Source of the DNA: a virus
Length of the DNA: 64,000 nt
Virus record (IMG/VR): IMGVR_UViG_3300045988_180190
Direction: 5' to 3' (one strand)
The notes beneath the pieces were generated by a model. It searched no databases. It was not told the DNA's origin and saw only the letters and a list, made by a program, of their open reading frames with translations. A program made the position numbers and the translations under genes. Below are positions 142-48,467 of this stretch, piece by piece (position 1 is the first letter of the stretch; each line of letters starts with the position of its first letter).

Positions 142-442
142 TCACCAGTCCATTGGCTTCATTGAAACCCTCCACATTTGGGCATTGTTAAGAGGCCTGG
201 CAGGTATGTTGAGTATAATATCGGATAAAATTTTTAATTCATCAAGCTTTTTAACGCTCACCATACAATTTTTCTTGCTGTTCAGTAGCTCTTTTGTTGT
301 AATGTTTTGTTTGATTAGGGTTTCCAAAATTCAAATATCGATTCAAAGTTGCTTCTGCAAGCGGCAGAAATTTAACAGTATTAAAAGGAATTTCATTATT
401 CATGGTTTTAAGGATGCATAGAGAAAAGTAGCCATCAAGCAT
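142..442 (-). CDS. two overlapping short ORFs (63 and 61 aa), possibly one frameshifted small gene
   Basis: ORFs 251..442 and 142..327 overlap in different frames between terminators. No recognisable motif. Confidence 0.2.
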
Positions 443-587: not shown

Positions 588-3500
588 CTACGAATTTCTT
601 ATGCACACAAACACGTGCCCCCATTGGCAGTCTCCGTCAAAGTCCGCGCCAAGTCCAGTGCTAACCAAAGGCGGAAGCAATATATTCTTGCCCTCATGAA
701 ATACAGGCTTAAACCCAAGCATATTATATTTATGCCAAGCTGGAGCTCTGTCAGACACTATCCATCTTCCCTTGTCCACAATTGACTGCATTACATTTTT
801 AGCCAAATCTGTTTTATTTTTTATATGCGTTAATGCTTCCTTTGGAGAAAAACCGCGCTTAACGAGCTCACCCTGAATATATGGAGCATACAGCTCTAAG
901 CCCATTTCGTAGGGTAGTCCAAGCTCATCCATAGATATCTCGGGATTAGCATCAATAACTCCTCTTGCGGAGAAGTCAACAGGTTTACTAATAATATTTC
1001 TATTCCACTGAGAAAATTTTGAAGTTCCCCCAATGATTTTCTGTAAAAATCCGGATACTCCCCTTTGCTTTAATTTTCTGCTATTAGGTTCACCGAAACC
1101 ATATAATGCCTTAAGTGATTTATAAACATTAATTGCATTTTTATTTGCCTCTTCATCACCCAACTCTTCTCGAATTTCTTTTTGTGTATGCGCAGTATTC
1201 AGCATATCCTGATAAAGTTCGTTTGCATCCCCTGGAAGAAATGTACTATCCCCCATAATGGCATAAGGTCTAAACTTAGGAGGTATCACTGGAACCTTAG
1301 ATATCATATATTCCTCTGGACTCATCTTATTTCTTTTTAATCCGTCCAAAGCTAAAATACGATTTAAAGCCTGTTGCTTCTTAGATTTAGGTCCATGACT
1401 AAAATCTTGTTTAGCCTGCTCTAGATCTCTATCTATATTTATATCCTTTAAAGCCTTATACAAAGCTTCTGTTCCAGTTCCGTATTTACGCAGTGTTTCA
1501 TTTCCTGTAATAATATCATTAAAGTCTTTTCTTGTTATACCAAGTAAAGAAATTATTGTGTCTTCAAATGCGGGATTTGGGTAATGCTTATCTAAAGTTA
1601 TTTTACCCCATTTATTAGCTACAGTTAATGTGGGATCAAATAATCCACCTTGCAGTGGACGCATGGTTTTAAAGTCCACAATGTTATCATTCTCAATTTC
1701 GATAGGATTAAATTTATCAAAATCTTTATCCGTGAACGGAGTAGCTTGAAGAGATTCTCCATTGTCAGCTCGCTTAGTATTAATTCCGGCACCTTGCATC
1801 AAGGCTATATATTTATCCCATATAAACGGAGATTTCCTAGCTAAAGTTGGTGTCTGCCCCATTCTTACTTGGCGCCAATAATCGTCATTACGCTGACCCC
1901 TTAATAAGATCGCATCTTTAATTACATTATATGCACCAGAAGATAGAAGAGCATTTACAGTTAAACCAGACATTCTTTTAGATCTCATACCCTCTTCTCC
2001 TCCCTTTACTGGAATCTCATTCTGGTCATAAATGCCTTGACCTCTTGAAGATAATTTTGAATCAGAGGTATGATGCAGCTTAAGAAAATAAGCATTGCCG
2101 ACTGTAATAGGTTGGTCTAATTCTCTATCAATAAGTGGATCATACACAGGCTCTGTATCTGATAAATTATTCTTTTTCAATTCACCCTCTACAAAGTCAT
2201 ACCATTTTTCTGTATTCTTATTGAATGTAGGCAATTTATATTTCTTTCCAGTCTTTTCCGCAACCTTACCAAGCATTGACTCATACATCATATTAGCATT
2301 AACACGTGATACAAGTCCTAGCTGATTAAATAACACATCCAAAGGTCTGCCATCTCTAGTTCTAGGCATATCTTTTTGCGGAATTATATGTGATACAGTT
2401 AACTTATTTCCGGAGCGAGTTGAATTGCCCGAGAATATAGGTTTATTGTGATATCTGGTAAGAATTATATGATATCTGCTATTTACTCCTATGCATACAA
2501 CGGGTCCATGATAATTCTTTAAGGTAAAGCATTTTTCTGTATCTAATTTAGTAAAACATACATCTTTGCCATTTGAATTAAGCAAGGTATCTTCACCGTT
2601 TATTTCACCGTTTATTTCACCGTTTATTCCACCGTTTATTCCACCGTTTATTTTACTGTTGATAGAAATAAATTGATTATCTACACATAATGTTAGCATT
2701 GCGGCAGGTAGTATATGCACTTCACCAGTATCTACGACAGGACATCTGTGATTACTTGTAACGAGTTGCGCCACATTATCATCTTCATATCCATATAAAT
2801 CCTCCCCAAGTAACATATATTTATGTATCTCAGTAACGTCATGCCAGTCCCACCTAATATCCTTTAAATCAGAAGCTACAATAAGTGAGGCAACCCTATC
2901 TCCTAATTTTACATTATTTATATTCTTCCATCCCTCTGAAGTAAGAATATCCGTATCCGGGTGATAGCACATCTTATCTCCCTCCCTCATTGGAGCAAAT
3001 GTTTCTACATTAACCTTATAGCCATCCTTAGTCTTTACTACATCTGTTACTACACCTGGAGTATCGTGATCCCAAACTTGAGAGGCATCGACTCTTGTGG
3101 ATTTTAAATACTTAGAGAGTTTACCTAGATTTGCATCATTTGCGGACACGGTCCTTGCTCTAGTAGAAAGAATCAATGGGTCACCAGGATTAACTGTGGA
3201 ACCAACTCTAATAATTCCATTATCATCCAAGTTAGCCATTTGCTCCTTCTTAAACTTGTCAGGATAAAATGTTTTAAAGTGCTCTTTTCCAGTTTTAAGC
3301 CCCTTATCGTTCTCCTCCATATATTGATACATATGTTGAGAAGTCATCCTATTAGCAAAATCCTCTGACACAACAACTGCGTCATCCATAGACCAACCTT
3401 TATAAGGAACAAATCCAACCCTTGCATTTAGCCCCATATTCAATGTGCCATTATCATCGGTAAAATTTGTTTTAGCCAATACTGGATTTCTCTTAGTTGA

Positions 3501-3983
3501 AGAGTCTCTAGATATTTTATCCCCAGGTTTGACTAAAGGATAATTGGTTAACATTGTTTTGCGATTAAAAGCAAAATTGTTATATAAATTTTTTACCTTG
3601 GTCTGACCTTTGTCATTTTTATACTTAATATAATCCGGAGAAACCTCCAGAATATCTGCAGAATTATCATCGTCATCTAAAGTTACAACACCTGTACGTT
3701 TTCCCATAAAATCCTCATAGGACTCATCTTTATCTGAATTTTTCAAGGACTGTACATTAGGGGATTCACCATTTTTAAGGGGCAATGCTTGAGTAACGAA
3801 TTTATGTTCGTAAAATCCCCTGGCTGCAGTTACAGAATTTTGCATGGGTAATAAATTTAATGTATTCCCAAAAAATTGATTGGGAGATACAAACTCATAC
3901 CTTACTTTATCCGTATCATCAGGTTCCTCAGTTATTACACCGCGTTTTAAAACAGGTATCATTTTATTATTTGATAAAGACAT
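588..3983 (-). CDS. multisubunit RNA polymerase, beta C-terminal half fused to beta-prime N-terminal part, intein-containing
   Basis: Beta motifs: LLPMQNSVTAARGFYEHKFVTQALPL (cf. FLEHDDANRALMG.NMQRQAVPL), GDKM[intein]STRSGNKL (cf. GDKMAGRHGNKG), GNAYFLKLHH. Beta-prime motifs: VPVIPPKFRP, KPVDFSARGVI, DRAPAWHKYN, GADFDGD. Confidence 0.9.
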   Translation of the reverse strand: MSLSNNKMIPVLKRGVITEEPDDTDKVRYEFVSPNQFFGNTLNLLPMQNSVTAARGFYEHKFVTQALPLKNGESPNVQSLKNSDKDESYEDFMGKRTGVVTLDDDDNSADILEVSPDYIKYKNDKGQTKVKNLYNNFAFNRKTMLTNYPLVKPGDKISRDSSTKRNPVLAKTNFTDDNGTLNMGLNARVGFVPYKGWSMDDAVVVSEDFANRMTSQHMYQYMEENDKGLKTGKEHFKTFYPDKFKKEQMANLDDNGIIRVGSTVNPGDPLILSTRARTVSANDANLGKLSKYLKSTRVDASQVWDHDTPGVVTDVVKTKDGYKVNVETFAPMREGDKMCYHPDTDILTSEGWKNINNVKLGDRVASLIVASDLKDIRWDWHDVTEIHKYMLLGEDLYGYEDDNVAQLVTSNHRCPVVDTGEVHILPAAMLTLCVDNQFISINSKINGGINGGINGEINGEINGEDTLLNSNGKDVCFTKLDTEKCFTLKNYHGPVVCIGVNSRYHIILTRYHNKPIFSGNSTRSGNKLTVSHIIPQKDMPRTRDGRPLDVLFNQLGLVSRVNANMMYESMLGKVAEKTGKKYKLPTFNKNTEKWYDFVEGELKKNNLSDTEPVYDPLIDRELDQPITVGNAYFLKLHHTSDSKLSSRGQGIYDQNEIPVKGGEEGMRSKRMSGLTVNALLSSGAYNVIKDAILLRGQRNDDYWRQVRMGQTPTLARKSPFIWDKYIALMQGAGINTKRADNGESLQATPFTDKDFDKFNPIEIENDNIVDFKTMRPLQGGLFDPTLTVANKWGKITLDKHYPNPAFEDTIISLLGITRKDFNDIITGNETLRKYGTGTEALYKALKDINIDRDLEQAKQDFSHGPKSKKQQALNRILALDGLKRNKMSPEEYMISKVPVIPPKFRPYAIMGDSTFLPGDANELYQDMLNTAHTQKEIREELGDEEANKNAINVYKSLKALYGFGEPNSRKLKQRGVSGFLQKIIGGTSKFSQWNRNIISKPVDFSARGVIDANPEISMDELGLPYEMGLELYAPYIQGELVKRGFSPKEALTHIKNKTDLAKNVMQSIVDKGRWIVSDRAPAWHKYNMLGFKPVFHEGKNILLPPLVSTGLGADFDGDCQWGHVFVCIRNS
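2424..2969 (-). mobile_element. mini-intein (182 aa) in the beta GDKM/RHGNKG motif
   Basis: Starts at Cys339 (CYHPDTDILTSEGWK). Block B is LVTSNHRCPV. Ends FSGN followed by Ser521. Removing it restores GDKM-STRSGNKL. Confidence 0.8.
2593..2652 (-). repeat. 5 x 12-nt tandem repeat encoding (ING[G/E])5 inside the intein
   Basis: tcaccgtttatt x3 then ccaccgtttatt x2 on the plus strand. Confidence 0.9.
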
Positions 3984-4042
3984 ATCAACATATTCAACTA
4001 TTTAGCCCCATAGTTCAAGCAATTTTATTAGATGTTATAGCT

Positions 4043-4082
4043 AAAAAAATACACAACCGGTGGATTTCCACCGATTGTGTAT
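4043..4082 (-). terminator. hairpin terminator (family 1)
   Basis: ATACACAACCGGTGG/CCACCGATTGTGTAT stem, then T7 on the minus strand, then AGCTATAAC. Confidence 0.75.
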
Positions 4083-4088
4083 TGCGAG

Positions 4089-4598
4089 CTATTTCCATTT
4101 TTGGGCTGTGAGCTCGATAATTTTCTTTACATTTCCTGGAAGTTGCCCGAACTTCAGGAAATCCTCTAGAGAGGAGGTACTGTATCCTAATGCAACCTCG
4201 ACCCCCCATACGGAGGATTTATAGATTGTCAACGTACGGGGGGCTAGCCCATGTATGACGACGTAGTCGTCGTTGGAGTTTATGTCTGCAAAACCACCAA
4301 CATAAAACTCTCCGCCTAGGTTGGCTTCTCCGCCGATGTGGGCATTATCGCCCACGCTTACGCTTCCGCCCACGTGGGCATTGCCGTTAACGACAGCATC
4401 GCCCTTTATTACGGCCGCGCCGTGTATCTTGGCGTTGCCTTGGATTAGGGCCCAATCTTCTACGCGTGCGTAAGCGGTGACGTACGCGTTTTCCCTGACC
4501 GTTGCGGATGGTCCGATGAAAGCGTCGTGATTGACGCTCGCATTCTCTAGTACTTTTCCCTCTATTACGGGATTTCCATATTTTACATGCTCGTTCAT
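4089..4598 (-). CDS. beta-helix (hexapeptide/bactofilin-like) repeat protein, cassette cargo
   Basis: Repetitive [VI]xGxAxVxG pattern (AKIHGAAVIKGDAVVNGNAHVGGSVSVGDNAHIGGEANLGG). Paralogue of 6716..7234. GC-rich. Confidence 0.7.
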   Translation of the reverse strand: MNEHVKYGNPVIEGKVLENASVNHDAFIGPSATVRENAYVTAYARVEDWALIQGNAKIHGAAVIKGDAVVNGNAHVGGSVSVGDNAHIGGEANLGGEFYVGGFADINSNDDYVVIHGLAPRTLTIYKSSVWGVEVALGYSTSSLEDFLKFGQLPGNVKKIIELTAQKWK

Positions 4599-4733
4599 AT
4601 CAGTAATCTATTTACCTACATCTAAATTTCCCATTTCGCACAGAATATGCGAAATGTCTAGTTGTAGATAAAATATTCCTTTCTAAATATATATACCACA
4701 ATTATATAAATATTTTCATGGGATGTTATAGCT
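4599..4733 (-). promoter_or_regulatory. cassette module A: extended -10-like TGGTATATA + leader stem-loop
   Basis: Conserved block repeated at five other sites. Stem-loop at 4632..4656. Confidence 0.6.
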
Positions 4734-4773
4734 AAAAAAATACACAACCGGTGGAAATCCACCGGTTGTGTAT
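4734..4773 (-). terminator. hairpin terminator (family 1)
   Basis: Near-identical to 4043..4082, with T7 on the minus strand. Confidence 0.75.
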
Positions 4774-4780
4774 TGTATGA

Positions 4781-5119
4781 CTAAAATTTCGCGTCGTGCA
4801 AATCAACGCTATCCAGGTTTACCCCTGCAAGGTTTGCGCCTTGCAGGTTGGTCCCTGTCAACTTTGCGCCCTTCAGGTTGGTCCCCGTTAACTTTGCGCC
4901 CCTCAGGTCAGCGCCTGAGAGGTCTGCATCTGTTAAGTCGGCCCTACTTAGGTCGGCCCCTATGAGGTTCACACCTCTGAGATTTGACTCCATCAAGAGA
5001 GCCAACTCGAGGTTGGCCCCCTCGAGGTCCGCACCCTCGAAGTTTGCCTCTGGTAGGATCACAAACCGCATGTCTGCATTCCTGAGATTTGCATTTTTAA
5101 AATTGAGCCTATTTTCCAT
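4781..5119 (-). CDS. pentapeptide-repeat protein
   Basis: A(D/N)LxG-type repeats throughout (ADLSRADLTDADLSGADLRGAKLTGTNLKGAKLTGTNLQGANLAGVNL). Confidence 0.85.
   Translation of the reverse strand: MENRLNFKNANLRNADMRFVILPEANFEGADLEGANLELALLMESNLRGVNLIGADLSRADLTDADLSGADLRGAKLTGTNLKGAKLTGTNLQGANLAGVNLDSVDLHDAKF
4844..4903 (-). repeat. 2 x 30-nt tandem duplication inside the pentapeptide gene
   Basis: caggttggtccctgtcaactttgcgccctt / caggttggtccccgttaactttgcgcccct. Confidence 0.85.
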
Positions 5120-5253
5120 AACTATAATCTATTTACCCACACCTAAATTTCCCTTCTTACACAGAATATGTAAGAAGTCTAGACATAGGTAAAATATCCT
5201 TTCTAAATATATATACCACAATTATATAAATATTTTCACGGGATGTTATGACT
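5120..5253 (-). promoter_or_regulatory. cassette module B
   Basis: Same conserved block. Stem-loop at 5153..5177. Confidence 0.6.
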
Positions 5254-5296
5254 AAAAAAACAAATCAAGGACCTATTCGAGGTCCTTGATTTGTTT
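5254..5296 (-). terminator. hairpin terminator
   Basis: CAAATCAAGGACC/GGTCCTTGATTTG stem overlapping the last codons of 5273..5644, followed by T7. Confidence 0.7.
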
Positions 5297-5644
5297 GTAC
5301 ACTTTATAAGTCTTTTGTAACTCATAAAGTGATCTATCCTCTTCTTCGCGGGCGCGTATGCGCCTGCCAAGAGATGAAAAATCGCACTCCCTATACATCC
5401 ACGCGGCCCTTCTGGACCCGGACTTAACGATTGTCTCAACCGGGAAGTTCGGTGGGAACTTAATCCCACTTTGCCCCAACTCATAGATACACTGGGAGAC
5501 CAGTGTATCTATCTTATTGGTGTGGTCCGTAAACACGGATAGGAACGAGAGGCTGAAGGCCTCTGCGTAGTTCTGAAGTCGAACTATAAGTTCTACTACA
5601 AGGTTGGACAAAAGAGAATTATATTTATTCGAGTCAATTTCCAT
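5273..5644 (-). CDS. hypothetical protein, cassette cargo
   Basis: 123-aa ORF bounded by module and terminator. No motif recognised. Confidence 0.6.
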   Translation of the reverse strand: MEIDSNKYNSLLSNLVVELIVRLQNYAEAFSLSFLSVFTDHTNKIDTLVSQCIYELGQSGIKFPPNFPVETIVKSGSRRAAWMYRECDFSSLGRRIRAREEEDRSLYELQKTYKVYKQIKDLE

Positions 5645-5776
5645 AATAAAAATTATATTAACTTCACCTATTTCCCATTTATAAACAGTTTATTTATAAA
5701 TGTATGTCAAAGTTAATATTCCTTTCTAAATATATATACCACAAGTATATAAATATTTTCATAGGATGTTATAATT
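5645..5776 (-). promoter_or_regulatory. cassette module C (diverged)
   Basis: Same architecture. AU-rich stem-loop at 5676..5702. Confidence 0.5.
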
Positions 5777-5813
5777 AAAAAAAAAGACCACCAGGGAATA
5801 ATCCCCAGTGGTC
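5777..5813 (-). terminator. hairpin terminator
   Basis: GACCACCAGGG/CCCCAGTGGTC stem followed by T9 on the minus strand. Confidence 0.7.
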
Positions 5814-5822
5814 TCGTGGAAC

Positions 5823-6158
5823 TTACTTGTACGTGAGCAAGTAAATCCCAAAACCATCTATCTTCGGAACAAACAGGACGACCTGTTTGACACGTATTCC
5901 GTTGACAGAGACCCCATTCTCCCAGGGGGTTTTTTTAACCGTGATTTTATTCTCACGGGGGAGAATATACCTTCCGCAAATAGCGCTTGCCATATGTGCG
6001 GCTCTTAATGAGCTGAACATTAGCATAGCACCATTACGGACTAGGCGCTTGAACCGCGCCTCCCCAAGCGGGGATATTTTTAATTCGCCCTCATAGAGGG
6101 ATATAGAATTCTTGTCGGTCACTATTATATTATCAATATTCATAATTGTTCCTTTCAT
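5823..6158 (-). CDS. hypothetical protein, cassette cargo
   Basis: The track ORF starts at 6185 inside the conserved ATGGGAAATTTAG module sequence. The internal Met (MKGTIMNID) at 6158 is the more likely start. Confidence 0.55.
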   Translation of the reverse strand: MKGTIMNIDNIIVTDKNSISLYEGELKISPLGEARFKRLVRNGAMLMFSSLRAAHMASAICGRYILPRENKITVKKTPWENGVSVNGIRVKQVVLFVPKIDGFGIYLLTYK

Positions 6159-6669
6159 TTGGAATTTTATTTCTAAATTTCCCATTTTATATGATTACAT
6201 AAAATGTCTAGAAATAATAAGCTAGCTTCTAATACAAGCTGAAGCTAGCTGGTGTGTAACCGTACAAGAATATAAAAGTGGCAAAGGAGAGAATTGCTCT
6301 CCTTCCCCACCCCTGAGGCATTGCCCCTTGGCAATCCTCAGGAGCCCCGCAATACACAACTTCAGCATAGGATAGCTGTCAGAGACACTCATGTCTAAGA
6401 GAGCCCTTTCCTTATATGTGCACACGGGGCAACCAACAACAGGTATTCCTCCCTGTTAGGTATTGTCCTGCTGGATACAATATACGGTCTCCAGAAGAAT
6501 ACCACCTCTTCTCCTAATTAGGAAAAGAGGTTTTCCTCTCCTTAAGGTACCAACCGCTTACCGCGATTGATACGCAGTTCGGAAAGGAATTTCCGTGAAG
6601 GATCTAAAATATCCTTTACTAAATATATATACCACAAAAGGTATATTTTTTTCATGTAGTGTTATAGCT
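6159..6669 (-). promoter_or_regulatory. cassette module D, split by an insertion of about 400 nt
   Basis: Promoter-proximal part at about 6600..6669. Stem-loop at 6183..6206. Foreign sequence lies between them. Confidence 0.55.
6207..6600 (-). ncRNA. candidate structured RNA / leader element, class unknown
   Basis: Chain of strong hairpins (e.g. CCTGAGGATTGCC-aagg-GGCAATGCCTCAGG, AAGGAGAG-caatt-CTCTCCTT, AGCTAGCTTC...GAAGCTAGCT). G-U pairs favour the minus strand. No credible ORF. Confidence 0.35.
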
Positions 6670-6709
6670 AAAAAAATACGCAACCGGTGGAAATCCACCG
6701 GTTGCGTAT
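6670..6709 (-). terminator. hairpin terminator (family 1)
   Basis: Same as 4734..4773 but with a compensatory A-T to G-C pair (ATACGCAACC/GGTTGCGTAT). Confidence 0.75.
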
Positions 6710-6715
6710 TGTGGG

Positions 6716-7234
6716 CTATTCTTGCCATTTTTTGGCAATGGCCCTAACTACTTCCCTTACGCTCTGGGGGAAGTCCCCAAAGTGTAAGAAAGTTTGTAGG
6801 GCCTGCGACGTACCCTCCGTCGCAACCTCAATGCCCCAGGTCGAGGATTTGTAAACCGCCAGGGGACACGGGGTCAACCCCTGGACGATGACTATGTCAT
6901 CGTTGGAGTTTATGTCGGCGTTTCCGCCGATAAAGCCCACACCACGTAGGAGGGCGTTCCCACCTATGTGGGCGTTTCCTCCTATTACCATATGGCCGCC
7001 TATAACGGCGTTACCATCTATGACGGCATCGCCCCTGAGCGACGCTGACTCACAGACCTCGGCGTTCCCGCCGACGATAGCCCTGTCTTCCAGGGTCGCG
7101 TCGTCCCATATAGACGCGTTGCCCTGGACGACGACCTGTTGCCCCACGTAAGCGTCATGATTGACGCTCGCGTCGTCTTTTATTGTTCCCTCAATAAGAG
7201 GGCAGCCGTACATAATGTGTTTATTGTTATCCAT
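6716..7234 (-). CDS. beta-helix repeat protein, paralogue of 4089..4598
   Basis: Alignable over its full length (GGNADINSNDDIVIVQGLTPCPLAVYKSSTWGIEVA vs GGFADINSNDDYVVIHGLAPRTLTIYKSSVWGVEVA). Confidence 0.7.
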   Translation of the reverse strand: MDNNKHIMYGCPLIEGTIKDDASVNHDAYVGQQVVVQGNASIWDDATLEDRAIVGGNAEVCESASLRGDAVIDGNAVIGGHMVIGGNAHIGGNALLRGVGFIGGNADINSNDDIVIVQGLTPCPLAVYKSSTWGIEVATEGTSQALQTFLHFGDFPQSVREVVRAIAKKWQE

Positions 7235-7368
7235 AACTATAATCTATTTACCTACACCTAAATTTCCCTTCTTACACAGAATATGTAAGAAGTCTAGTTG
7301 TAGATAAAATATCCTTTCTAAATATATATACCACAATTATCCGTATTTTTTCACAGGATGCTATAGCT
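7235..7368 (-). promoter_or_regulatory. cassette module E
   Basis: Same conserved block. Stem-loop at 7268..7292. Confidence 0.6.
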
Positions 7369-7396
7369 AAAAAAAAGAGAAGACCACAGTCTTCTC
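7369..7396 (-). terminator. hairpin terminator (family 2)
   Basis: GAGAAGAC-caca-GTCTTCTC followed by T8 on the minus strand. Confidence 0.7.
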
Positions 7397-7453
7397 TTCG
7401 CTATAACTAAACTGACATCTCCAACGGTTAAAACTCATTGGGTTCTAAGGTAT

Positions 7454-8041
7454 TTAATCCTTAAGTCGTAATTGTAGCTTCATTTCGGGGAACCTTTCTA
7501 ACAATTTCTTATACAAAAATAAAGAAGGTCTATTCTCTTTGTTAACTGTATATGCGTTCATATCAAACTTGTCTCCTTCTTCTAATAAGCTTTTTATCAT
7601 TGCTTTTTCTGCTAAACCTTTACCTCTAAATTCGGGAAGCACTCCTATAGAATAATAAGCTACACGTTTATTTTCGGGATTGGTTCTTACTTGCACACCT
7701 CTAAATCCTGCTGGGGCTCCTGTTTCTTCATCTTTTATAATTTCTAAAACATCGTCATTCCCATTATATCGCTCTTTATATAGTCCATGAGGAAAATAAC
7801 GTTTATTCTCTTCATAGATTCGAGATAAAATTTTATCAAGATCTCTTTGAACACCCTCAATATCCGTCGAACGTATTGATCCCTTTTTCTCTATATTGCC
7901 AGTTTCTTGTTTCCGCTTGTCTTTTCTTAGTCTAGAGAATAAGCGTAGTAGTCCAGGGGTAGCATATGAGGAATTTTCACTTTTTTTAGTTGATGCTTCT
8001 TTTTTTAATTGAAACTTAGAAATTAGTTGATCAATTGTCAT
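7454..8041 (-). CDS. GNAT-family N-acetyltransferase
   Basis: Motif A-like YYSIGVLPEFRGKGLAEKAM (R/Q-x-x-G-x-G/A). Confidence 0.6.
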   Translation of the reverse strand: MTIDQLISKFQLKKEASTKKSENSSYATPGLLRLFSRLRKDKRKQETGNIEKKGSIRSTDIEGVQRDLDKILSRIYEENKRYFPHGLYKERYNGNDDVLEIIKDEETGAPAGFRGVQVRTNPENKRVAYYSIGVLPEFRGKGLAEKAMIKSLLEEGDKFDMNAYTVNKENRPSLFLYKKLLERFPEMKLQLRLKD

Positions 8042-8210
8042 AATTTTAGAAATTTTTATTTATCAATATTAGTTGCGTTATATTGTCTGTCAACAAAGTT
8101 AATTTCCCTTCTTACGCAGAATATGCAAGAAGTCTAGTTATAGGTAAAATTCTCCTTTCTAGTTGCATATACCACTTTTATCTGTATTTTTTCACAAAGG
8201 TGTCATAGAT
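8042..8210 (-). promoter_or_regulatory. cassette module F (diverged)
   Basis: Same block. Stem-loop at 8108..8132. Confidence 0.5.
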
Positions 8211-8237
8211 AAAAAAAGAGAAGACTGTGGTCTTCTC
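8211..8237 (-). terminator. hairpin terminator (family 2)
   Basis: GAGAAGAC-tgtg-GTCTTCTC followed by T7. Same stem as 7369..7396 with an inverted loop. Confidence 0.7.
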
Positions 8238-8396
8238 TTCGCTATGACTATGTCAACTACTCACTAGACGAGCTAGTGAGCTTGTAACTAGGTATTACTA
8301 CCTGCTACAATAGGCTTGTTGGCGGAAGCCCTAAATTCCTCGCAATAGACAAGCTATTGCATATCCTTTCGGGATTTTAAATGAATAAAAATTAAA

Positions 8397-10913: not shown

Positions 10914-11510
10914 TTACTCCTCCATCTTCCAAGTGTAAGTAGTCAATAGTCTATTTTTATCTTTAACTACTTCAGGTTTAATTTCTATTATCTCATCTTC
11001 AGAAGACTTATTAAACTTTTTAGCATAAGCCCAAGATATTGCTTGTTTAAGCTCGCTATTAGACTTTCGTTTAGGATCAGAATGTAATGGCGAAAGATAA
11101 TCACAGCATATATATCTATTTTCTATATATTCCTGTGGCAATATGGCAAGAAGCTCAAAAGGTTCAGTCCAATTTTTATTGTCGTCGCTAAATACACATA
11201 ATGTTCCAATATCTTTTTTCGTTGGTATGACATCAACCACATCAATCTTTTTACTAAATTGTTCCTTAGTTATTGAGTCTACTATAGTTTTTTCTAGCTG
11301 TCTTCCATAGTGTCTATCGCTTGTAGGTATACATACTAAGGAATCCTTGCAGCCTATGATAGGTGCGTGCTCAATTAACGGAATACTACATACCCCACCG
11401 TCCTCAAATCTTATTCTTCCTGAACTTTTGAAATTACCATGTCTTGATTTCACCTGTATCAAAAGATGCTTTGGACACTCACGGGAAAAAACTAATTTTA
11501 ATGATTTCAT
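10914..11510 (-). CDS. hypothetical protein
   Basis: 198-aa ORF. Confidence 0.6.
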   Translation of the reverse strand: MKSLKLVFSRECPKHLLIQVKSRHGNFKSSGRIRFEDGGVCSIPLIEHAPIIGCKDSLVCIPTSDRHYGRQLEKTIVDSITKEQFSKKIDVVDVIPTKKDIGTLCVFSDDNKNWTEPFELLAILPQEYIENRYICCDYLSPLHSDPKRKSNSELKQAISWAYAKKFNKSSEDEIIEIKPEVVKDKNRLLTTYTWKMEE

Positions 11511-11585
11511 AATATGATATTTGTCTCCTTTTTGTTATGTTATTTGTCTCCCTATTATTATGATATTTGTCTCCCTGTTATTACG

Positions 11586-12131
11586 TTATTTGGCTAAGTC
11601 AAAGCTGATGTCAGAATCTATTTCGTCTCCCCAACTATCCCAACCATCAGCTTTATTTCTAGCAAATAATTCTATTCTAGGTAAATCACCTACTAATTCT
11701 ATAATTTTATCTCTTACACAATCAGGCTTTTGCGAATGATTACGTAGTGGACTAAACACAAGCTGTGATACATTTGGGCTAATCCTCTTAGGCTTTCCTT
11801 TAGTCGCCAATAAACAAGGTTCACTGTTGCCTCTAGTCCACCTTCCCAATCCAAAGAATAATCCGTCTCCAGATTTATTCTGTTTTATCCACTGAAAAGC
11901 TATGGTTTTATATTTAAATCCCCAAGCGTCAATAACGTCTAAAGCTTCTTTTAGTTTGGGATACGTAGCCCACATAAACAAGATACAGTCATCCGCAGCT
12001 ATATCTTTAATTGGGAGTGACTGTAATTCAGAATCCGTCATTGTTTTATAATGACGGGCACAAGCACCTTGACAGTTCTTATCTTGATATGTCCATGGAG
12101 GATCGGCGTAAATAATGTTATACTTTTTCAT
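11586..12131 (-). CDS. MT-A70-like N6-adenine DNA methyltransferase
   Basis: Catalytic IIYADPPWTY (DPPW) motif near the N-terminus. Confidence 0.75.
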   Translation of the reverse strand: MKKYNIIYADPPWTYQDKNCQGACARHYKTMTDSELQSLPIKDIAADDCILFMWATYPKLKEALDVIDAWGFKYKTIAFQWIKQNKSGDGLFFGLGRWTRGNSEPCLLATKGKPKRISPNVSQLVFSPLRNHSQKPDCVRDKIIELVGDLPRIELFARNKADGWDSWGDEIDSDISFDLAK

Positions 12132-44324: not shown

Positions 44325-47300
44325 TTATCCACAAGCGGACCACCCGCAGCTATAACATTTTTTACAACCCTCTTCTCGCAGGACTTTACCCCCACAGACG
44401 GGACAGGTCTCTCCCAAGTCTAACTTACCAGCGCATTGTAACAACACCTTGTTTATAGCTTTTACAATCGATGTGAAATCTCCTTCAGTTTTAGATAGCT
44501 GATGTATAATTTCTTTTAATGATACACCAGATTGAAGATTCAAAGCTACCAGTCTTGCCAAGGCTGTAAGCGTTGCCTTATCCGAGGACTCATTTGTTTT
44601 AACTATTTTGTAATGGAATTTGCCGTCCTTAGAGGTAAACTCAAATGTAGCTTTAGCTATTTTTCTTAATGTTCCCTCCTTGACGTGTTTAGGTATAATC
44701 CTACGGCGTTCAACCCATTCTCCTTCGTCATCAAATATATTATCCTCATTTATATCTATAAACATCTCAAAGGGGCAATCTCCAAGAAAGCTTACTATAA
44801 AGTAGTAGGATACTCCTTTGACTGTTCTAAAGAATACCCTACAAGGCAAAACGTCTGGACGTTTATCAGCAGTTATTGTTGGGTGGATAATAGAAGTAGA
44901 AGTTGGATTTACGTCTTCTTTAGCATCTGTAGACTGTAAGACGGCACTCATTGAGCCTTCTCTGTAGGTAGTAACCCCTTTAATTACTCCGCTATTATAT
45001 GCGTCTAAATAAACGTTCTTAAACTGTTCATAAGGATAGTCCTTACCGACATTTATCGTTTTACTTACAGCGGAATCCAAATGCGCAGATACGAGTTTCA
45101 GAATTTCCAGATGAGATTCAACAGGCAATTGCATAGCTGTTGTGAAAACTTCCTGTGGATATTCTAAATTATGATCCTTAATCCATTGATAGGCATAATC
45201 TCTTATGAGCACCTTCTTGCAAAGACCTCTATCCTTATGTATCTGATACTCTACGCCATCTTCTCCTGTGTAAGTTAGATACGTGAAGTCAGCATATTTA
45301 GCTTCTTTAAAGTACGCATTAGGTTTAAAGTCTCCCTCCCAGAATCTAGGGCATTTATCTCTTAGAAAATCTGGAATATTAGGCATTCCTACGATGCGGT
45401 AGTACTCTAGTTGAAATACAGGTTCTACGCCTCCTGAAATATTATTTGCCAAACAACCAGTATTTCCCGTGGGCTGGACTGAGAACAAGGCTGAATTGCG
45501 AATGCCGTTAGTTTCTAACAATTCTTTTTGCAAAGCATCCAATATATACTTCGGCAGATGTCTAAACGTATATTTTATATTATCAGCATGTTTTGCAGGA
45601 TTACATCCTTTAAACGCACCTTTACATTTAGCTAAAGCAATGCTTGCCCTTATCCCTAAGAAATTATAAACATCAAAAACTTTAGTTAAAAAGTCTTTAG
45701 CTTCCGTAGAATCATATTTTAAACCCAACATCATTAAGGCAGAACCTATGCCTGTAATGCCAAGTCCGATTCTTCGATAGCTTTCAGCCATATATTTATA
45801 TTCTTTCAAAGGCAGATTCGCAATGTCTATGACATTATCCAAGAATCTTACGCAATAAGGAATAATATCGGAAAACTTCTGAAAATTAAAAACAGCAGCG
45901 TGTTTGATTTCATCATATTCTATAAATGCTGTGAGATTGATGGATCCTAAATTGCAGCATCCTCCGCTGTATAAAACCTGCTCTCCGCACTGCTGATTAT
46001 TAAGCATATAAAATTTTGGATGTCCATGTTCGTTCACAGTTTCAAACATCCCAACGCAATAATTATGCACATCATCAACTGTACCGGTATAGACATCTTG
46101 TTTGCCTATATATTCAATAGACACAATTCTATGATTAAAATCAACAGCCTGCGTCTTTAAATCCGCGTAAGAACGGAAAGCAGAAATCGGACCAAATCTA
46201 TGAGGAATCTTATTTTGTTTGCAATAAGAATCAAACTCACATTTAAATGGATCTCTTGACAGAGCAAATTTTAAATCCGTATAAGCTTTAAGTTGTCTTA
46301 TTCTATTCTCACCTTTTGTCTTAGAAGCATAGTTTGAAATTCCCTGTCGCAAATGCTGTATGTAATTTTCCTGCTTAAGTTTGTTACGATTCACACAGAG
46401 ATTTGAACAAAAAGCTACTTCCCTGCTTTGGAAAGGTGTAAAGAACTCTTTACCACAATTTTCACAAATCTTTTTTACTAAAACTCTATTATTAACAATC
46501 TTTGTTTCATAACCTTGTGATACGGCATTTAGATATGTTCTTTGCAACCTACTATCACATTTCATTAAATCATTATAAACACCTAAAGCTTTAGCAGCAT
46601 ATTTACAAATATCACGAATACCTCCGCCTCCAAAAAACTTGACACGATAATCATCATTAAATGACTGTAATACGTGAAAACCTCTAGAAGCTAACTCATC
46701 TTGTAATTCTTTTACAGAGAAGAATCTTTGATATTTTAAAATTAAATCTTTCGCAATATCTAAAAGTATCTCATTAGAAACACCTTTATAATTCTTATTC
46801 TTTTCTCCAAATGAAGCATTTTTTTGCTTCTCTTTATAGGAATCCCACTTTGCCTTAGTCCACTCTGTAGCGGCACGACACATAGGATTAGTCTTTCCAA
46901 ACATACGCTTACAATGTAAAGCATCATGCGCAGCTTTTGACATAACTTCTAAATTATCTAAAGAATTATTTAATCCGTTATAATCCTTATGATGCACAAC
47001 TTCTGCATTAGTGAGTCTTCTACCTATAACATATTCAGCATTAATGCGATGTAATGCCTTGCGAGACTTTTTTCCGGAAGTCTTTATCCAAGCATATAGT
47101 TGAGAATTACTCGATCTATTAAAGATTTCATTAAACTTCTGGTATGAAATAGAAGCAACATACAAAGATTCTCCTGGGGACATATCTTTTACCTCTTTAT
47201 ATGTACCATCGGATAATCTAAACTTATGATTAGACGTGCAATCAATATGATTACCATCATCTAAAGTCACTCGATAAATATCTTTATTATAGCCTGTAAT

Positions 47301-48467
47301 ACGAGGATTACGCATTAACTTTGTAACAATATTGCCAGCATTATCACAAGCTAACACCGGAACATCTCTGCCAGCTTCGGCCAACTCTTTAATAGTCACA
47401 TTTGTACGCCCGTCAGCAACAGCAACTTTGGTATCTCCAGTAAGACAAGGATTTGTCCCAACTAATTGCAACTCAGGTATATAGTTTGCGCAATGTGTCT
47501 CATTTGCCCTATCGAGAAATAAAACTCCAGGTTCCGAACGATTGCTAGTAGACTGCATTAAAGCTTCCCACAAATCCGTAGCCCTAACTGTGCGATAAAC
47601 TTTAACGGGGTAACCTTTTTTCTCCCATTTATCCAAGTCTCCATCCCATTCGGATTTATATTTTTCAAAAGCCGTATCAGGAAATCTCAATTGCCAAAAA
47701 TCAACAGCATCGATTTCTTCCTGCGAAGCATTGTTTTTAACAAGATCGTTAACTCTATTTAAAATATCCATAAAAGCATTGGTAACATTTACGGACATAT
47801 TCATTTTCGTTAAATGAAACGGCTTTTGCTTGGCAGTAATAAATTCGTAAATATCAGGGTGCCAGCAGCTTAAGCATAGCATCATTGCGCCCTTACGAAT
47901 TTTCTTCTTTTCGTTCTTGGGCGTTTTTTCTTTACTCTCTATATAATAATCTCCCGGACCTTCCGTAATAATCTCGGAACTTTTATCAAACAGCTCCAAA
48001 TACTTCACAGCGCCGGGTGTTCTAGCACCTATGCCTTCTATATAAGAACCTCTGGGACGAATAAAACTGCAATTTAAACCCCAACCCCCTTCAGATTTTA
48101 AAGTCAAAACCTGATTCTTTAAGACCTCCATGATTCCTTCAACGGAATCCATATCATACTTAGGTTGGGGGGATAAAAAACAGTTGACGAGGGAGACATT
48201 TGTGCAATTTCCCCCGGCATTTGCCAATATGCGGCCTCCGGGTATAAACTTAAAATCTTTTAAAATATCATAAAAAGCATTGGCATAAAATCTTTTGGAT
48301 TCGTCATCCTTTTCTACGTTAGCTACGGCATTTGCCACACGTCTCCATGTATCTGTAATACTATTTTCATTTTGCGTTTTATAAGTTACTTCCCAAATCT
48401 GACGGGAAAAATCATTCGTAAACGGATCCGGATTATCCGGAGTTTTTGCTTTTAATTGTTCGTCCAT
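44325..48467 (-). CDS. ribonucleotide reductase, class II-like, intein-containing
   Basis: GTNP[intein]CGEQVLYSGGCCNLGSINL restores NPCGEQ...CNLGSINL. C-terminal Cys cluster CPVCGG...CKKCYSCGWSACG. Confidence 0.8.
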   Translation of the reverse strand: MDEQLKAKTPDNPDPFTNDFSRQIWEVTYKTQNENSITDTWRRVANAVANVEKDDESKRFYANAFYDILKDFKFIPGGRILANAGGNCTNVSLVNCFLSPQPKYDMDSVEGIMEVLKNQVLTLKSEGGWGLNCSFIRPRGSYIEGIGARTPGAVKYLELFDKSSEIITEGPGDYYIESKEKTPKNEKKKIRKGAMMLCLSCWHPDIYEFITAKQKPFHLTKMNMSVNVTNAFMDILNRVNDLVKNNASQEEIDAVDFWQLRFPDTAFEKYKSEWDGDLDKWEKKGYPVKVYRTVRATDLWEALMQSTSNRSEPGVLFLDRANETHCANYIPELQLVGTNPCLTGDTKVAVADGRTNVTIKELAEAGRDVPVLACDNAGNIVTKLMRNPRITGYNKDIYRVTLDDGNHIDCTSNHKFRLSDGTYKEVKDMSPGESLYVASISYQKFNEIFNRSSNSQLYAWIKTSGKKSRKALHRINAEYVIGRRLTNAEVVHHKDYNGLNNSLDNLEVMSKAAHDALHCKRMFGKTNPMCRAATEWTKAKWDSYKEKQKNASFGEKNKNYKGVSNEILLDIAKDLILKYQRFFSVKELQDELASRGFHVLQSFNDDYRVKFFGGGGIRDICKYAAKALGVYNDLMKCDSRLQRTYLNAVSQGYETKIVNNRVLVKKICENCGKEFFTPFQSREVAFCSNLCVNRNKLKQENYIQHLRQGISNYASKTKGENRIRQLKAYTDLKFALSRDPFKCEFDSYCKQNKIPHRFGPISAFRSYADLKTQAVDFNHRIVSIEYIGKQDVYTGTVDDVHNYCVGMFETVNEHGHPKFYMLNNQQCGEQVLYSGGCCNLGSINLTAFIEYDEIKHAAVFNFQKFSDIIPYCVRFLDNVIDIANLPLKEYKYMAESYRRIGLGITGIGSALMMLGLKYDSTEAKDFLTKVFDVYNFLGIRASIALAKCKGAFKGCNPAKHADNIKYTFRHLPKYILDALQKELLETNGIRNSALFSVQPTGNTGCLANNISGGVEPVFQLEYYRIVGMPNIPDFLRDKCPRFWEGDFKPNAYFKEAKYADFTYLTYTGEDGVEYQIHKDRGLCKKVLIRDYAYQWIKDHNLEYPQEVFTTAMQLPVESHLEILKLVSAHLDSAVSKTINVGKDYPYEQFKNVYLDAYNSGVIKGVTTYREGSMSAVLQSTDAKEDVNPTSTSIIHPTITADKRPDVLPCRVFFRTVKGVSYYFIVSFLGDCPFEMFIDINEDNIFDDEGEWVERRRIIPKHVKEGTLRKIAKATFEFTSKDGKFHYKIVKTNESSDKATLTALARLVALNLQSGVSLKEIIHQLSKTEGDFTSIVKAINKVLLQCAGKLDLGETCPVCGGKVLREEGCKKCYSCGWSACG
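45990..47447 (-). mobile_element. large intein (486 aa) with an HNH endonuclease domain in the RNR active-site motif
   Basis: Starts CLTGDTKVAV (Cys341). Block B is CTSNHKF. HNH motif VVHHKDYNGLNNSLDNLEVMSKAAHDALH. Block F-like VYTGTVDDVHNYCVG. Last residues are NNQQ before Cys827. Confidence 0.8.

Follow-up and report, generated by a model that had tools for sequence, protein, structure and literature searches.

A hairpin-dense segment separates a cassette promoter from ORF106

We analysed a 64,000-nucleotide stretch of viral DNA (IMG/VR record IMGVR_UViG_3300045988_180190; hereafter the window, to which all coordinates refer unless a sister locus is named, with minus-strand features marked (-)) and, within it, a hairpin-dense segment at 6207-6600 that lies in front of a small gene, ORF106. 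The window genome is that of an AT-rich (~35% G+C) large phage encoding its own RNA polymerase of the multisubunit type, whose beta and beta' domains are joined in a single 1131-amino-acid (aa) protein (588-3983(-)), together with a DNA polymerase, ribonucleotide reductase and helicases. A minus-strand array of small cassettes occupies ~4000-8250, each cassette running from a terminator hairpin through a conserved promoter (TTGTGGTATATATATTTAG) and a conserved leader stem-loop to a short gene. The array genes are mostly GC-rich and encode two hexapeptide-repeat proteins, one pentapeptide-repeat protein and two unknowns; the gene for a GNAT acetyltransferase is AT-rich. Cassette gene order is shuffled among sister phages.

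Cassette D differs from the other minus-strand cassettes by ~390 extra nucleotides (nt) between promoter (core 6637-6619) and leader (6214-6171), with a G+C content of 46% in surroundings of about 30-37% (Table 1). A first reading of the sequence alone had described this segment as lacking a credible open reading frame (ORF) and as forming a chain of strong hairpins, and both descriptions held. The longest ORF, of 67 aa and starting with GTG, lacks conservation among orthologues, and the minus strand of 6207-6600 has a minimum free energy (MFE) of -178.6 kcal/mol compared with -119 +/- 6 for shuffled sequences (z = -9.95; plus strand -146.5 kcal/mol, z = -7.8). Of the eight hairpins listed in that reading, the MFE or consensus structure contains six (CAATCGC/GCGGTTG, ACAGG/CCTGT, GCCCCG/CGGGGC, the CCTGAGG... 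hairpin, the GTGG-AAGGAGAG hairpin and AGCTAGCTTC/GAAGCTAGCT), whereas CGGAAA/TTTCCG and AGGAAAA/TTTTCCT are out-competed; the conserved pairings that replace them are ACCUCUUUUCCU/AGGAGAAGAGGU and, in copies of full length (see below), a long-range CGGAA/UUCCG helix. The location was also as described, with the segment lying between a promoter and an ORF and ending in terminator-like hairpins. The promoter at 6619..6637 is the only copy upstream of ORF106, and no second copy stands between the segment and the gene. The last hairpin, H9, occupies the site where the ORF106 cassette's own promoter is expected, and the normal promoter core is absent there.

No family in Rfam 15 matched, either at gathering thresholds across the whole window or at E <= 10 for 5700-6800 and for a full-length orthologue, where only chance-level scores were returned. 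A blastn search of 5700-6800 against 50,697 phage records gave no match, exact-pattern scans of IMG/VR with three strings from the element recovered one sister contig only, and the single hit in a JGI metagenome scan proved on reading to be a chance match. No tRNA or tmRNA was found in the region of the segment.

Orthologous loci were reached through ORF106 (106 aa), which has nine homologues in public assemblies at 86-92% identity, all preceded by the element; 15 loci were obtained in this way and two more later. The element is immediately upstream of ORF106 in all 17 loci, whatever the upstream neighbour, and the gene on the far side of the promoter varies by locus, encoding a GNAT protein, a hexapeptide protein, a 1059-aa protein or a 125-aa protein. 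Judged from its codon-position pattern (18.9%, 12.3% and 41.5% variable columns at positions 1, 2 and 3), ORF106 is a genuine gene on which purifying selection acts. A search of 1.84 billion representative proteins recovered only its own cluster, there was no Pfam, PHROG or PDB-sequence match, and its AlphaFold2 (AF2) model, with a predicted local distance difference test (pLDDT) score of 45, was too poor for a structure search.

Table 1. Features of the ORF106 locus and positions of the intact paralogue in sister loci
Feature	Position	Strand	Basis or remark
Conserved cassette promoter core (TTGTGGTATATATATTTAG)	6619..6637	-	Repeat families D1 and D3; conserved at all orthologous loci
Pseudogene relic of AcrIII-1/DUF1874-like gene plus terminator, assigned by homology	6266..6609	-	nhmmer E = 3.7e-21 to L008:2096-2524, model positions 11-409
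Hairpin H2: outer stem UUCCUUUCC/GGAGAGGAA, inner GUAUCAAUCGC/GCGGUUGGUAC	6533..6589	-	Common to intact coding copies
Hairpin H3 (ACCUCUUUUCCU-AAUU-AGGAGAAGAGGU)	6504..6531	-	Terminator-like, flagged by terminator scan; common to coding copies (helices 4, 5)
GGTTGCC, junction of 62-nt deletion unique to window copy	6428..6434	-	Comparison with 16 other copies
Long irregular hairpin H6, outer stem GGUUGCCCCGUGUGCACA/UGUGUAUUGCGGGGCU	6344..6434	-	Helix 11: double changes at 9/14 pairs
Hairpin H7 (CCUGAGGAUUGCC-AAGG-GGCAAUGCCUCAGG)	6312..6342	-	MFE and consensus folds
Hairpin H8 and interrupted U-tract (UUUUAUAUUCUU)	6266..6311	-	Aligns to GGGGAAGGAGAGCAAUUGCCCUCCUUUCCCAUUUUUUUU after intact gene; helix 12
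Hairpin H9 (AGCUAGCUUC, 11-nt loop, GAAGCUAGCU), then UAUUAUUUC	6211..6250	-	MFE and consensus folds
Standard cassette leader: stem-loop CAUUUUAUGUAAUCAUAUAAAAUG, GGAAAUUUAG, ribosome-binding site AAAGGAAC	6144..6214	-	Repeat family D2
ORF106, orphan protein	5823..6143	-	Always directly downstream of relic
Intact AcrIII-1/DUF1874-like gene, sister loci	L008:2096-2473; L018:3001-3375; L019:163-540; L020:3064-3441; L021:3001-3330		

The segment is homologous to an AcrIII-1/DUF1874-like gene and its terminator

An nhmmer profile was built from the element and 15 orthologues and run against all fetched DNA. In loci L008, L011 and L021 it gave a second, diverged match (E = 3.7e-21 in L008 and 1.7e-17 in L021) that spans model positions 11-410, essentially the element's full length, and falls on a called gene of 125 aa and its terminator. 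A decayed coding gene, the outcome that the sequence-only reading had set against its own proposal, is thus what the comparison found: over its whole length the segment is homologous to an AcrIII-1/DUF1874-like gene plus terminator, and by this homology it is shown to be a pseudogene of such a cassette. The ends of the element correspond to gene body and terminator, and H8 is, by its alignment, the relic of the ancestral gene's intrinsic terminator. What had been taken for an insertion of foreign sequence is instead a pair of neighbouring cassettes that have become a single transcription unit by fusion.

The marks of decay are extensive. The relic is truncated at its 5' end, where the leader, ribosome-binding site, ATG and first ~8 codons are gone; it shifts from frame 1 to frame 3 and carries five stops (TAA, TAA, TAG, TAA and TGA), and a 5-nt deletion takes away the Gly-His codons including that of the catalytic His. 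Peptide relics can still be read in the window copy (ILHGNSFP; INRGKRLVP*GEENLFS*LGEEVVFFW; VALPLSKNNYS*IGENTFRE, asterisks marking stops). Indels among the relic orthologues measure 1, 2, 10 and 62 nt, none a multiple of three, and no intact copy of the 125-aa gene occurs within the 64-kb window.

In sister phages the gene is intact. Differences among five intact variants amount to 0.146, 0.104 and 0.317 at codon positions 1, 2 and 3, and this pattern, together with structural matches to AcrIII-1, shows that the 125-aa gene is real. The AF2 model of the protein (pLDDT 82) returned in its top 14 Foldseek matches only members of the AcrIII-1 family (6SCF, 2X4I, 2J85, 2J6B or Crn2; probability 1.0, template-modelling score ~0.6), and 8Y7F was also matched at probability 1.0. 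These structures include AcrIII-1 itself (6SCF) and SIRV1 ORF114 (2X4I), STIV B116 (2J85) and AFV3-109 (2J6B); the only matches in a profile search of PDB sequences were the same three viral proteins. Within a GHxxT motif, H49 of the 125-aa protein aligns to catalytic His47 of 2X4I, the invariant catalytic residue of the AcrIII-1 family (10.1101/778746). The Pfam family PF08960 scored below its curated cut-off (E = 0.021; 15.4 vs 26 bits). On the strength of the modelled fold and the motif, the 125-aa protein is a candidate cyclic tetra-adenylate (cA4) ring nuclease of AcrIII-1/DUF1874 type.

Other identities for the segment were considered and rejected. A mobile element resembling a miniature inverted-repeat transposable element was ruled out, as the element has a single copy per genome in a fixed context and its only second match is the intact gene. 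Recoding of the stop codons was ruled out by the presence of all three stop types and the absent start codon. A CsrA-type sponge (GGA/GGAG motifs) and a T-box (GGUGGUA) were dropped because the motifs sit in stems and no Rfam model matched.

The RNA fold is common to the coding copies and the relic

The intact coding sequences fold more extremely than the relic: their z-scores run from -11.3 to -15.2, and their folding energies to as much as -0.6 kcal/mol per nucleotide. Control values were z +1.5 to -3.9 for AT-rich window genes and -1.4 to +1.6 for unrelated genes, two of them with 57% G+C; the latter encode proteins that share SAYLGREI with the 125-aa family and were used as controls only. 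In the coding consensus fold ~78% of alignment columns are paired, and the five coding sequences by themselves show double changes at 28 of 170 pairs. In one stem of H2, synonymous codons co-vary (GUC AAG..CUU GAC, GUU AAG..CUU AAC and GUG AGA..UCU CAC).

A joint alignment of relic and coding sequences, which are ~62% identical, contains 93 common pairs. Of the cells at these pairs 96.9% are paired, compared with 50-54% in controls slid by 1-3 columns, and 32 pairs carry double changes (slid controls 4-11); none of 500 shuffles reached the observed values. The helices concerned include H2 (helices 2 and 3 of the joint alignment), with double changes at 8 of its 19 pairs and more than 96% of cells paired. 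The homologue of H7 in the intact gene spans the stop codon and reads CCUGCGGAUCAGU...ACUGAUGCCGCAGG in intact copies, with compensatory changes. Among the relics alone just 3 pairs have double changes, and in H9 one C-G pair appears as U-A or U-G among orthologues. Two of the checks proposed with the sequence-only reading, a collection of homologues and a search for covariation, were productive, and the shared helices show that the hairpins were inherited from the messenger RNA (mRNA) of the parent gene and not newly acquired by the leader.

The strand preference also agreed with the earlier description, in which G-U pairs favoured the minus strand: at consensus pairs the relics have a G.U:A.C ratio of 107:2 and the coding sequences one of 96:12, and in every case it is the sense strand that folds better. 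The excess of G.U pairs and the better folding of the sense strand indicate a constraint on the transcript, an argument that is partly circular in that the structure was predicted on the sense strand.

Strong folding was likewise observed elsewhere in the array. All of its GC-rich genes (4000-8250(-)) are abnormally folded (z = -4.2 to -8.9), and the hexapeptide-repeat paralogues (4089-4598, 6716-7234 and L008:1402-1926) have 91 common, all-canonical pairs, 10 with double changes (slid controls 0-2). Structure of the whole transcript thus seems to be a general property of the cassette array.

The relic is constrained, and the window copy carries a deletion

Mean pairwise identity is 96% for the relic and 90.5% for ORF106, falling to 84% at third codon positions. 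Compared over the same genome pairs, the relic is also more similar than the intact paralogue (99.5 vs 89%, 93.8 vs 85% and 93.6 vs 84.7%). Variable columns make up 6.9% of the paired and 15.2% of the unpaired positions of the relic (Fisher p = 0.006), as against 41.5% of ORF106 third positions, and 11 of the 18 pairs that vary within the relic clade are still paired in every sequence. These comparisons show that the relic evolves several-fold slower than adjacent synonymous sites, and slower than its intact paralogue too.

The window copy differs from its orthologues by a deletion. It lacks 62 nt that are present in all 16 other copies, where they are flanked by GGTTGCC direct repeats. In the full-length form, the 5' half is closed by the long-range helices GAUCCUUC.CGGAA/UUCCG.GAAGGGUU and GGUAUUCUU/GAGAAUACU, and the 3' strands of both fall within the missing 62 nt. 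The deletion thus takes out the 3' strands of long-range helices 1 and 6 and the entire hairpin CUAUCUAAGAA/UUCUUAGAUAG. Without this stretch to close its 5' domain, the window copy may be in part degenerate.

Two relic haplotypes were observed (L009, L013 and L020 are involved), which differ by the wholesale replacement of two patches, one at a hairpin apex (~6480-6495, in the stretch 6470-6500(-)) and one in the interior of H6 (6344-6434), for which two allelic forms exist among the phages.

We considered whether the segment is simply a functionless pseudogene, its hairpins the baggage of a hyper-structured parent and its conservation the result of a recent recombinational spread of the relic-ORF106 unit. 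Its status as a decayed gene is in keeping with this, as are the window copy's 62-nt deletion between direct repeats, the mosaic haplotypes, some broken pairs and the very narrow clade. However, ORF106, although linked, is 2-4 times more diverged than the relic, and variability at its third positions is six times that at paired relic columns. The relic is also better conserved than an intact, selected paralogue in the same genomes, variation is lower in its paired than in its unpaired columns (p = 0.006), and 96.9% of common pairs remain intact despite ~38% nucleotide divergence from the coding clade. We therefore regard a functionless relic as unlikely.

The relic probably serves as a structured 5' leader of ORF106

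The reading that we prefer, and consider probable, is that the pseudogene has been exapted as a structured 5' leader which the ORF106 transcript must cross. From the alignments, a single deletion would have joined the cassette promoter to about codon 9 of the ancestral gene, taking its leader, ribosome-binding site and ATG, and the promoter of the ORF106 cassette would likewise have been lost. With the fusion and the loss of that promoter, the dead gene and its weakened terminator would become a long 5' leader of the ORF106 mRNA. The relic would then be transcribed from the upstream promoter as this leader, and selection at the RNA level would still act on its fold, on the strand that is transcribed. 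A role in cis is the most likely, in which the relic would form a compact 5' domain, resistant to nucleases or hard to access, that is protective or stabilising, while the leaky terminator-like hairpins H3, H8 and H9 in the path may set the amount of transcript that reaches ORF106. There is no indication that the relic senses a ligand.

The sequence-only reading had proposed a riboswitch or attenuator, and that proposal survives in part: a functional structured leader RNA remains likely, but no known riboswitch or non-coding RNA (ncRNA) class is matched. In such a scheme a ligand- or factor-sensing domain would decide on termination at H9 (or H8) before ORF106. In all 17 loci the element comes after the sole promoter and ahead of the ORF106 leader, which would suit such a device, as would three terminator-like hairpins along the path, the lack of an own promoter for ORF106 and the strong conservation of the element. 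Yet neither the short nor the full-length form matches an Rfam family even at E <= 10, and the same helices occur inside an intact protein-coding gene, where the role of a 5' sensor is impossible. Nearly all nucleotides lie in near-perfect stems, which leaves no obvious conserved pocket. Moreover, H8 and H9 appear as isolated hairpins without a competing partner, no terminator/antiterminator pairing being seen in the MFE, centroid and consensus folds, although no dedicated search for alternative conformers was made. A sensing device is on these grounds barely credible.

A discrete ncRNA that ends at H8/H9 and acts in trans was also weighed, for instance as a sponge or decoy that engages a host defence factor, RNA-binding or RNA-guided, with the intact mRNA likewise active. 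Coding and non-coding versions alike conserve the fold, which suggests that the shape of the RNA matters in itself; the 3' ends are terminator-like, and the surrounding early array holds genes with a likely role in counter-defence (pentapeptide, GNAT and AcrIII-1-like, with Lar in sister loci). But a discrete RNA would have to accumulate, the window copy tolerates the loss of three helices, and other GC-rich cassette genes are also hyper-structured, which suggests a general property of the transcripts and not a specific decoy. We hold this possibility to be highly unlikely.

Several observations nevertheless weigh against an exapted leader. All copies come from one narrow phage clade in which the relics are at least 92% identical, and with so narrow a clade the covariation is mostly between relic clade and coding clade, which leaves few independent events. 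Seven variable pairs are broken in single sequences, and the window copy lacks the 62 nt making up three helices, an argument that a complete fold can be dispensed with, in this copy at least. The elements are mosaic: L008 and L009 share an identical ORF106 yet differ at 27 relic sites, and these different relic patches point to recombination inside the element, so high conservation could derive in part from recent recombinational spread. Co-transcription of relic and ORF106, with read-through between them, is a step that we infer.

Beyond the exapted leader, a broader idea may be put forward tentatively, although we think it doubtful: the RNA fold, and not the protein, might be the selected product of the early cassettes, as a ~430-nt multi-helix structure that extends across the AcrIII-1-like coding sequence, is weaker in other GC-rich genes and outlives the reading frame under purifying selection. 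If so, early transcripts would have a role at the RNA level, such as a decoy or shielding from type III/VI CRISPR or RNase-based defences, and the relic would be a case of a protein gene turned structured ncRNA. It is speculative that strong folding hides the early transcripts of counter-defence genes from host defences that are guided by RNA or based on RNases.

Comparison with known systems

The closest relatives by ancestry are the AcrIII-1/DUF1874 ring nucleases (SIRV1 gp29, STIV B116, AFV3-109 and Crn2). The intact paralogue resembles them in predicted fold and in its GHxxT motif, and like STIV B116 it is placed among early genes; its similarity to PF08960, however, is sub-threshold, and the window copy, with no start, a frameshift, five stops and the His codon deleted, is not a gene.

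In the mRNAs of hok-family type I toxins, which are highly folded, long-range 5'-3' pairing and covariation occur inside the coding sequence. The present element is similar in the ~400-nt transcript, in having most of the coding sequence paired, in its long-range closing helices and in compensatory changes that are often synonymous. It differs in having no antisense RNA partner, no toxin and no sign of processing-triggered refolding, and in that the property extends to several unrelated cassette genes and outlasts coding.

Like riboswitches and attenuators, the element is a folded 5' leader, located between promoter and ORF and finishing in hairpins with U-rich tracts behind them, whereas it matches no Rfam class, shows no antiterminator alternative in the folds inspected (no dedicated search having been made), and has a structure that is ancestral to a coding sequence and did not evolve as a sensor. 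GOLLD, ROOL, HEARO and other large phage or prophage ncRNAs are comparable in size (390-455 nt here), number of helices, phage carriage and strongly negative z; unlike them, the element matches none in sequence or structure, has near-perfect helices with few conserved unpaired nucleotides and a demonstrable protein-gene ancestry, and is confined to one narrow clade.

The array itself recalls the PeSL mobile regulatory cassettes of T4-type phages, said to have been described by Arbiol et al. in 2010, in which units of an early promoter and a stem-loop reportedly shuffle small genes. As in those, the present array combines terminator hairpin, conserved promoter, conserved leader and small gene, and its gene order is shuffled between sister phages, but the promoter and leader sequences are different here, the phage has its own multisubunit RNA polymerase, the payload genes are GC-rich and hyper-structured, and the finding concerns a fusion of two units.

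A dead anti-CRISPR gene or a fused pseudogene is ordinary; a whole-gene RNA fold that outlives its reading frame is not. What is unusual is evidence for selection on RNA shape over a whole protein-coding gene, with the shape kept once coding was lost. If confirmed, the locus would provide a natural experiment that separates RNA-level from protein-level selection at a phage counter-defence locus, and a testable idea, namely that early anti-defence transcripts are built to be inaccessible or long-lived. It also calls for caution with phage cassette arrays, where a 'leader' dense in hairpins can turn out to be a fused pseudogene.

Other features of the array and window

The array and its flanks hold likely counter-defence genes, including those for a 112-aa pentapeptide-repeat protein (4781-5119(-)), a possible DNA mimic, and the GNAT acetyltransferase, and a homologue of the restriction-alleviation protein Lar is encoded in sister loci (L003:526-951 and L009:640-1065). 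The cassette leaders (4598-4681, 5117-5202, 7232-7317 and 6144-6214, all (-)) contain ATGGGAAATTTAG..., which in standard cassettes gives a small upstream ORF (MGNLDVGK*). This reading frame continues into ORF106 in cassette D, so that gene callers choose a 120-aa form.

Downstream of the RNA polymerase gene, 167-204(-) matches the Rfam abiF RNA slightly over its gathering score (43.4 vs 37 bits, E = 1.2e-4) and could be a pseudo-antitoxin-like RNA or a chance hairpin. The gene for the large subunit of ribonucleotide reductase (1380 aa, 44325-48467(-)) contains an HNH-endonuclease-like stretch at residues ~450-550, which suggests an intein or an inserted homing endonuclease. Within the RNA polymerase gene, a 12-nt tandem repeat (CACCGTTTATTT-like, 5-6 copies) at 2582-2663 codes for INGG/INGE repeats, and three or four 23-nt direct repeats (TTATTTGTCTCC...) lie at 11510-11595, in the gap separating the ORFs at 10914-11510 and 11586-12131.

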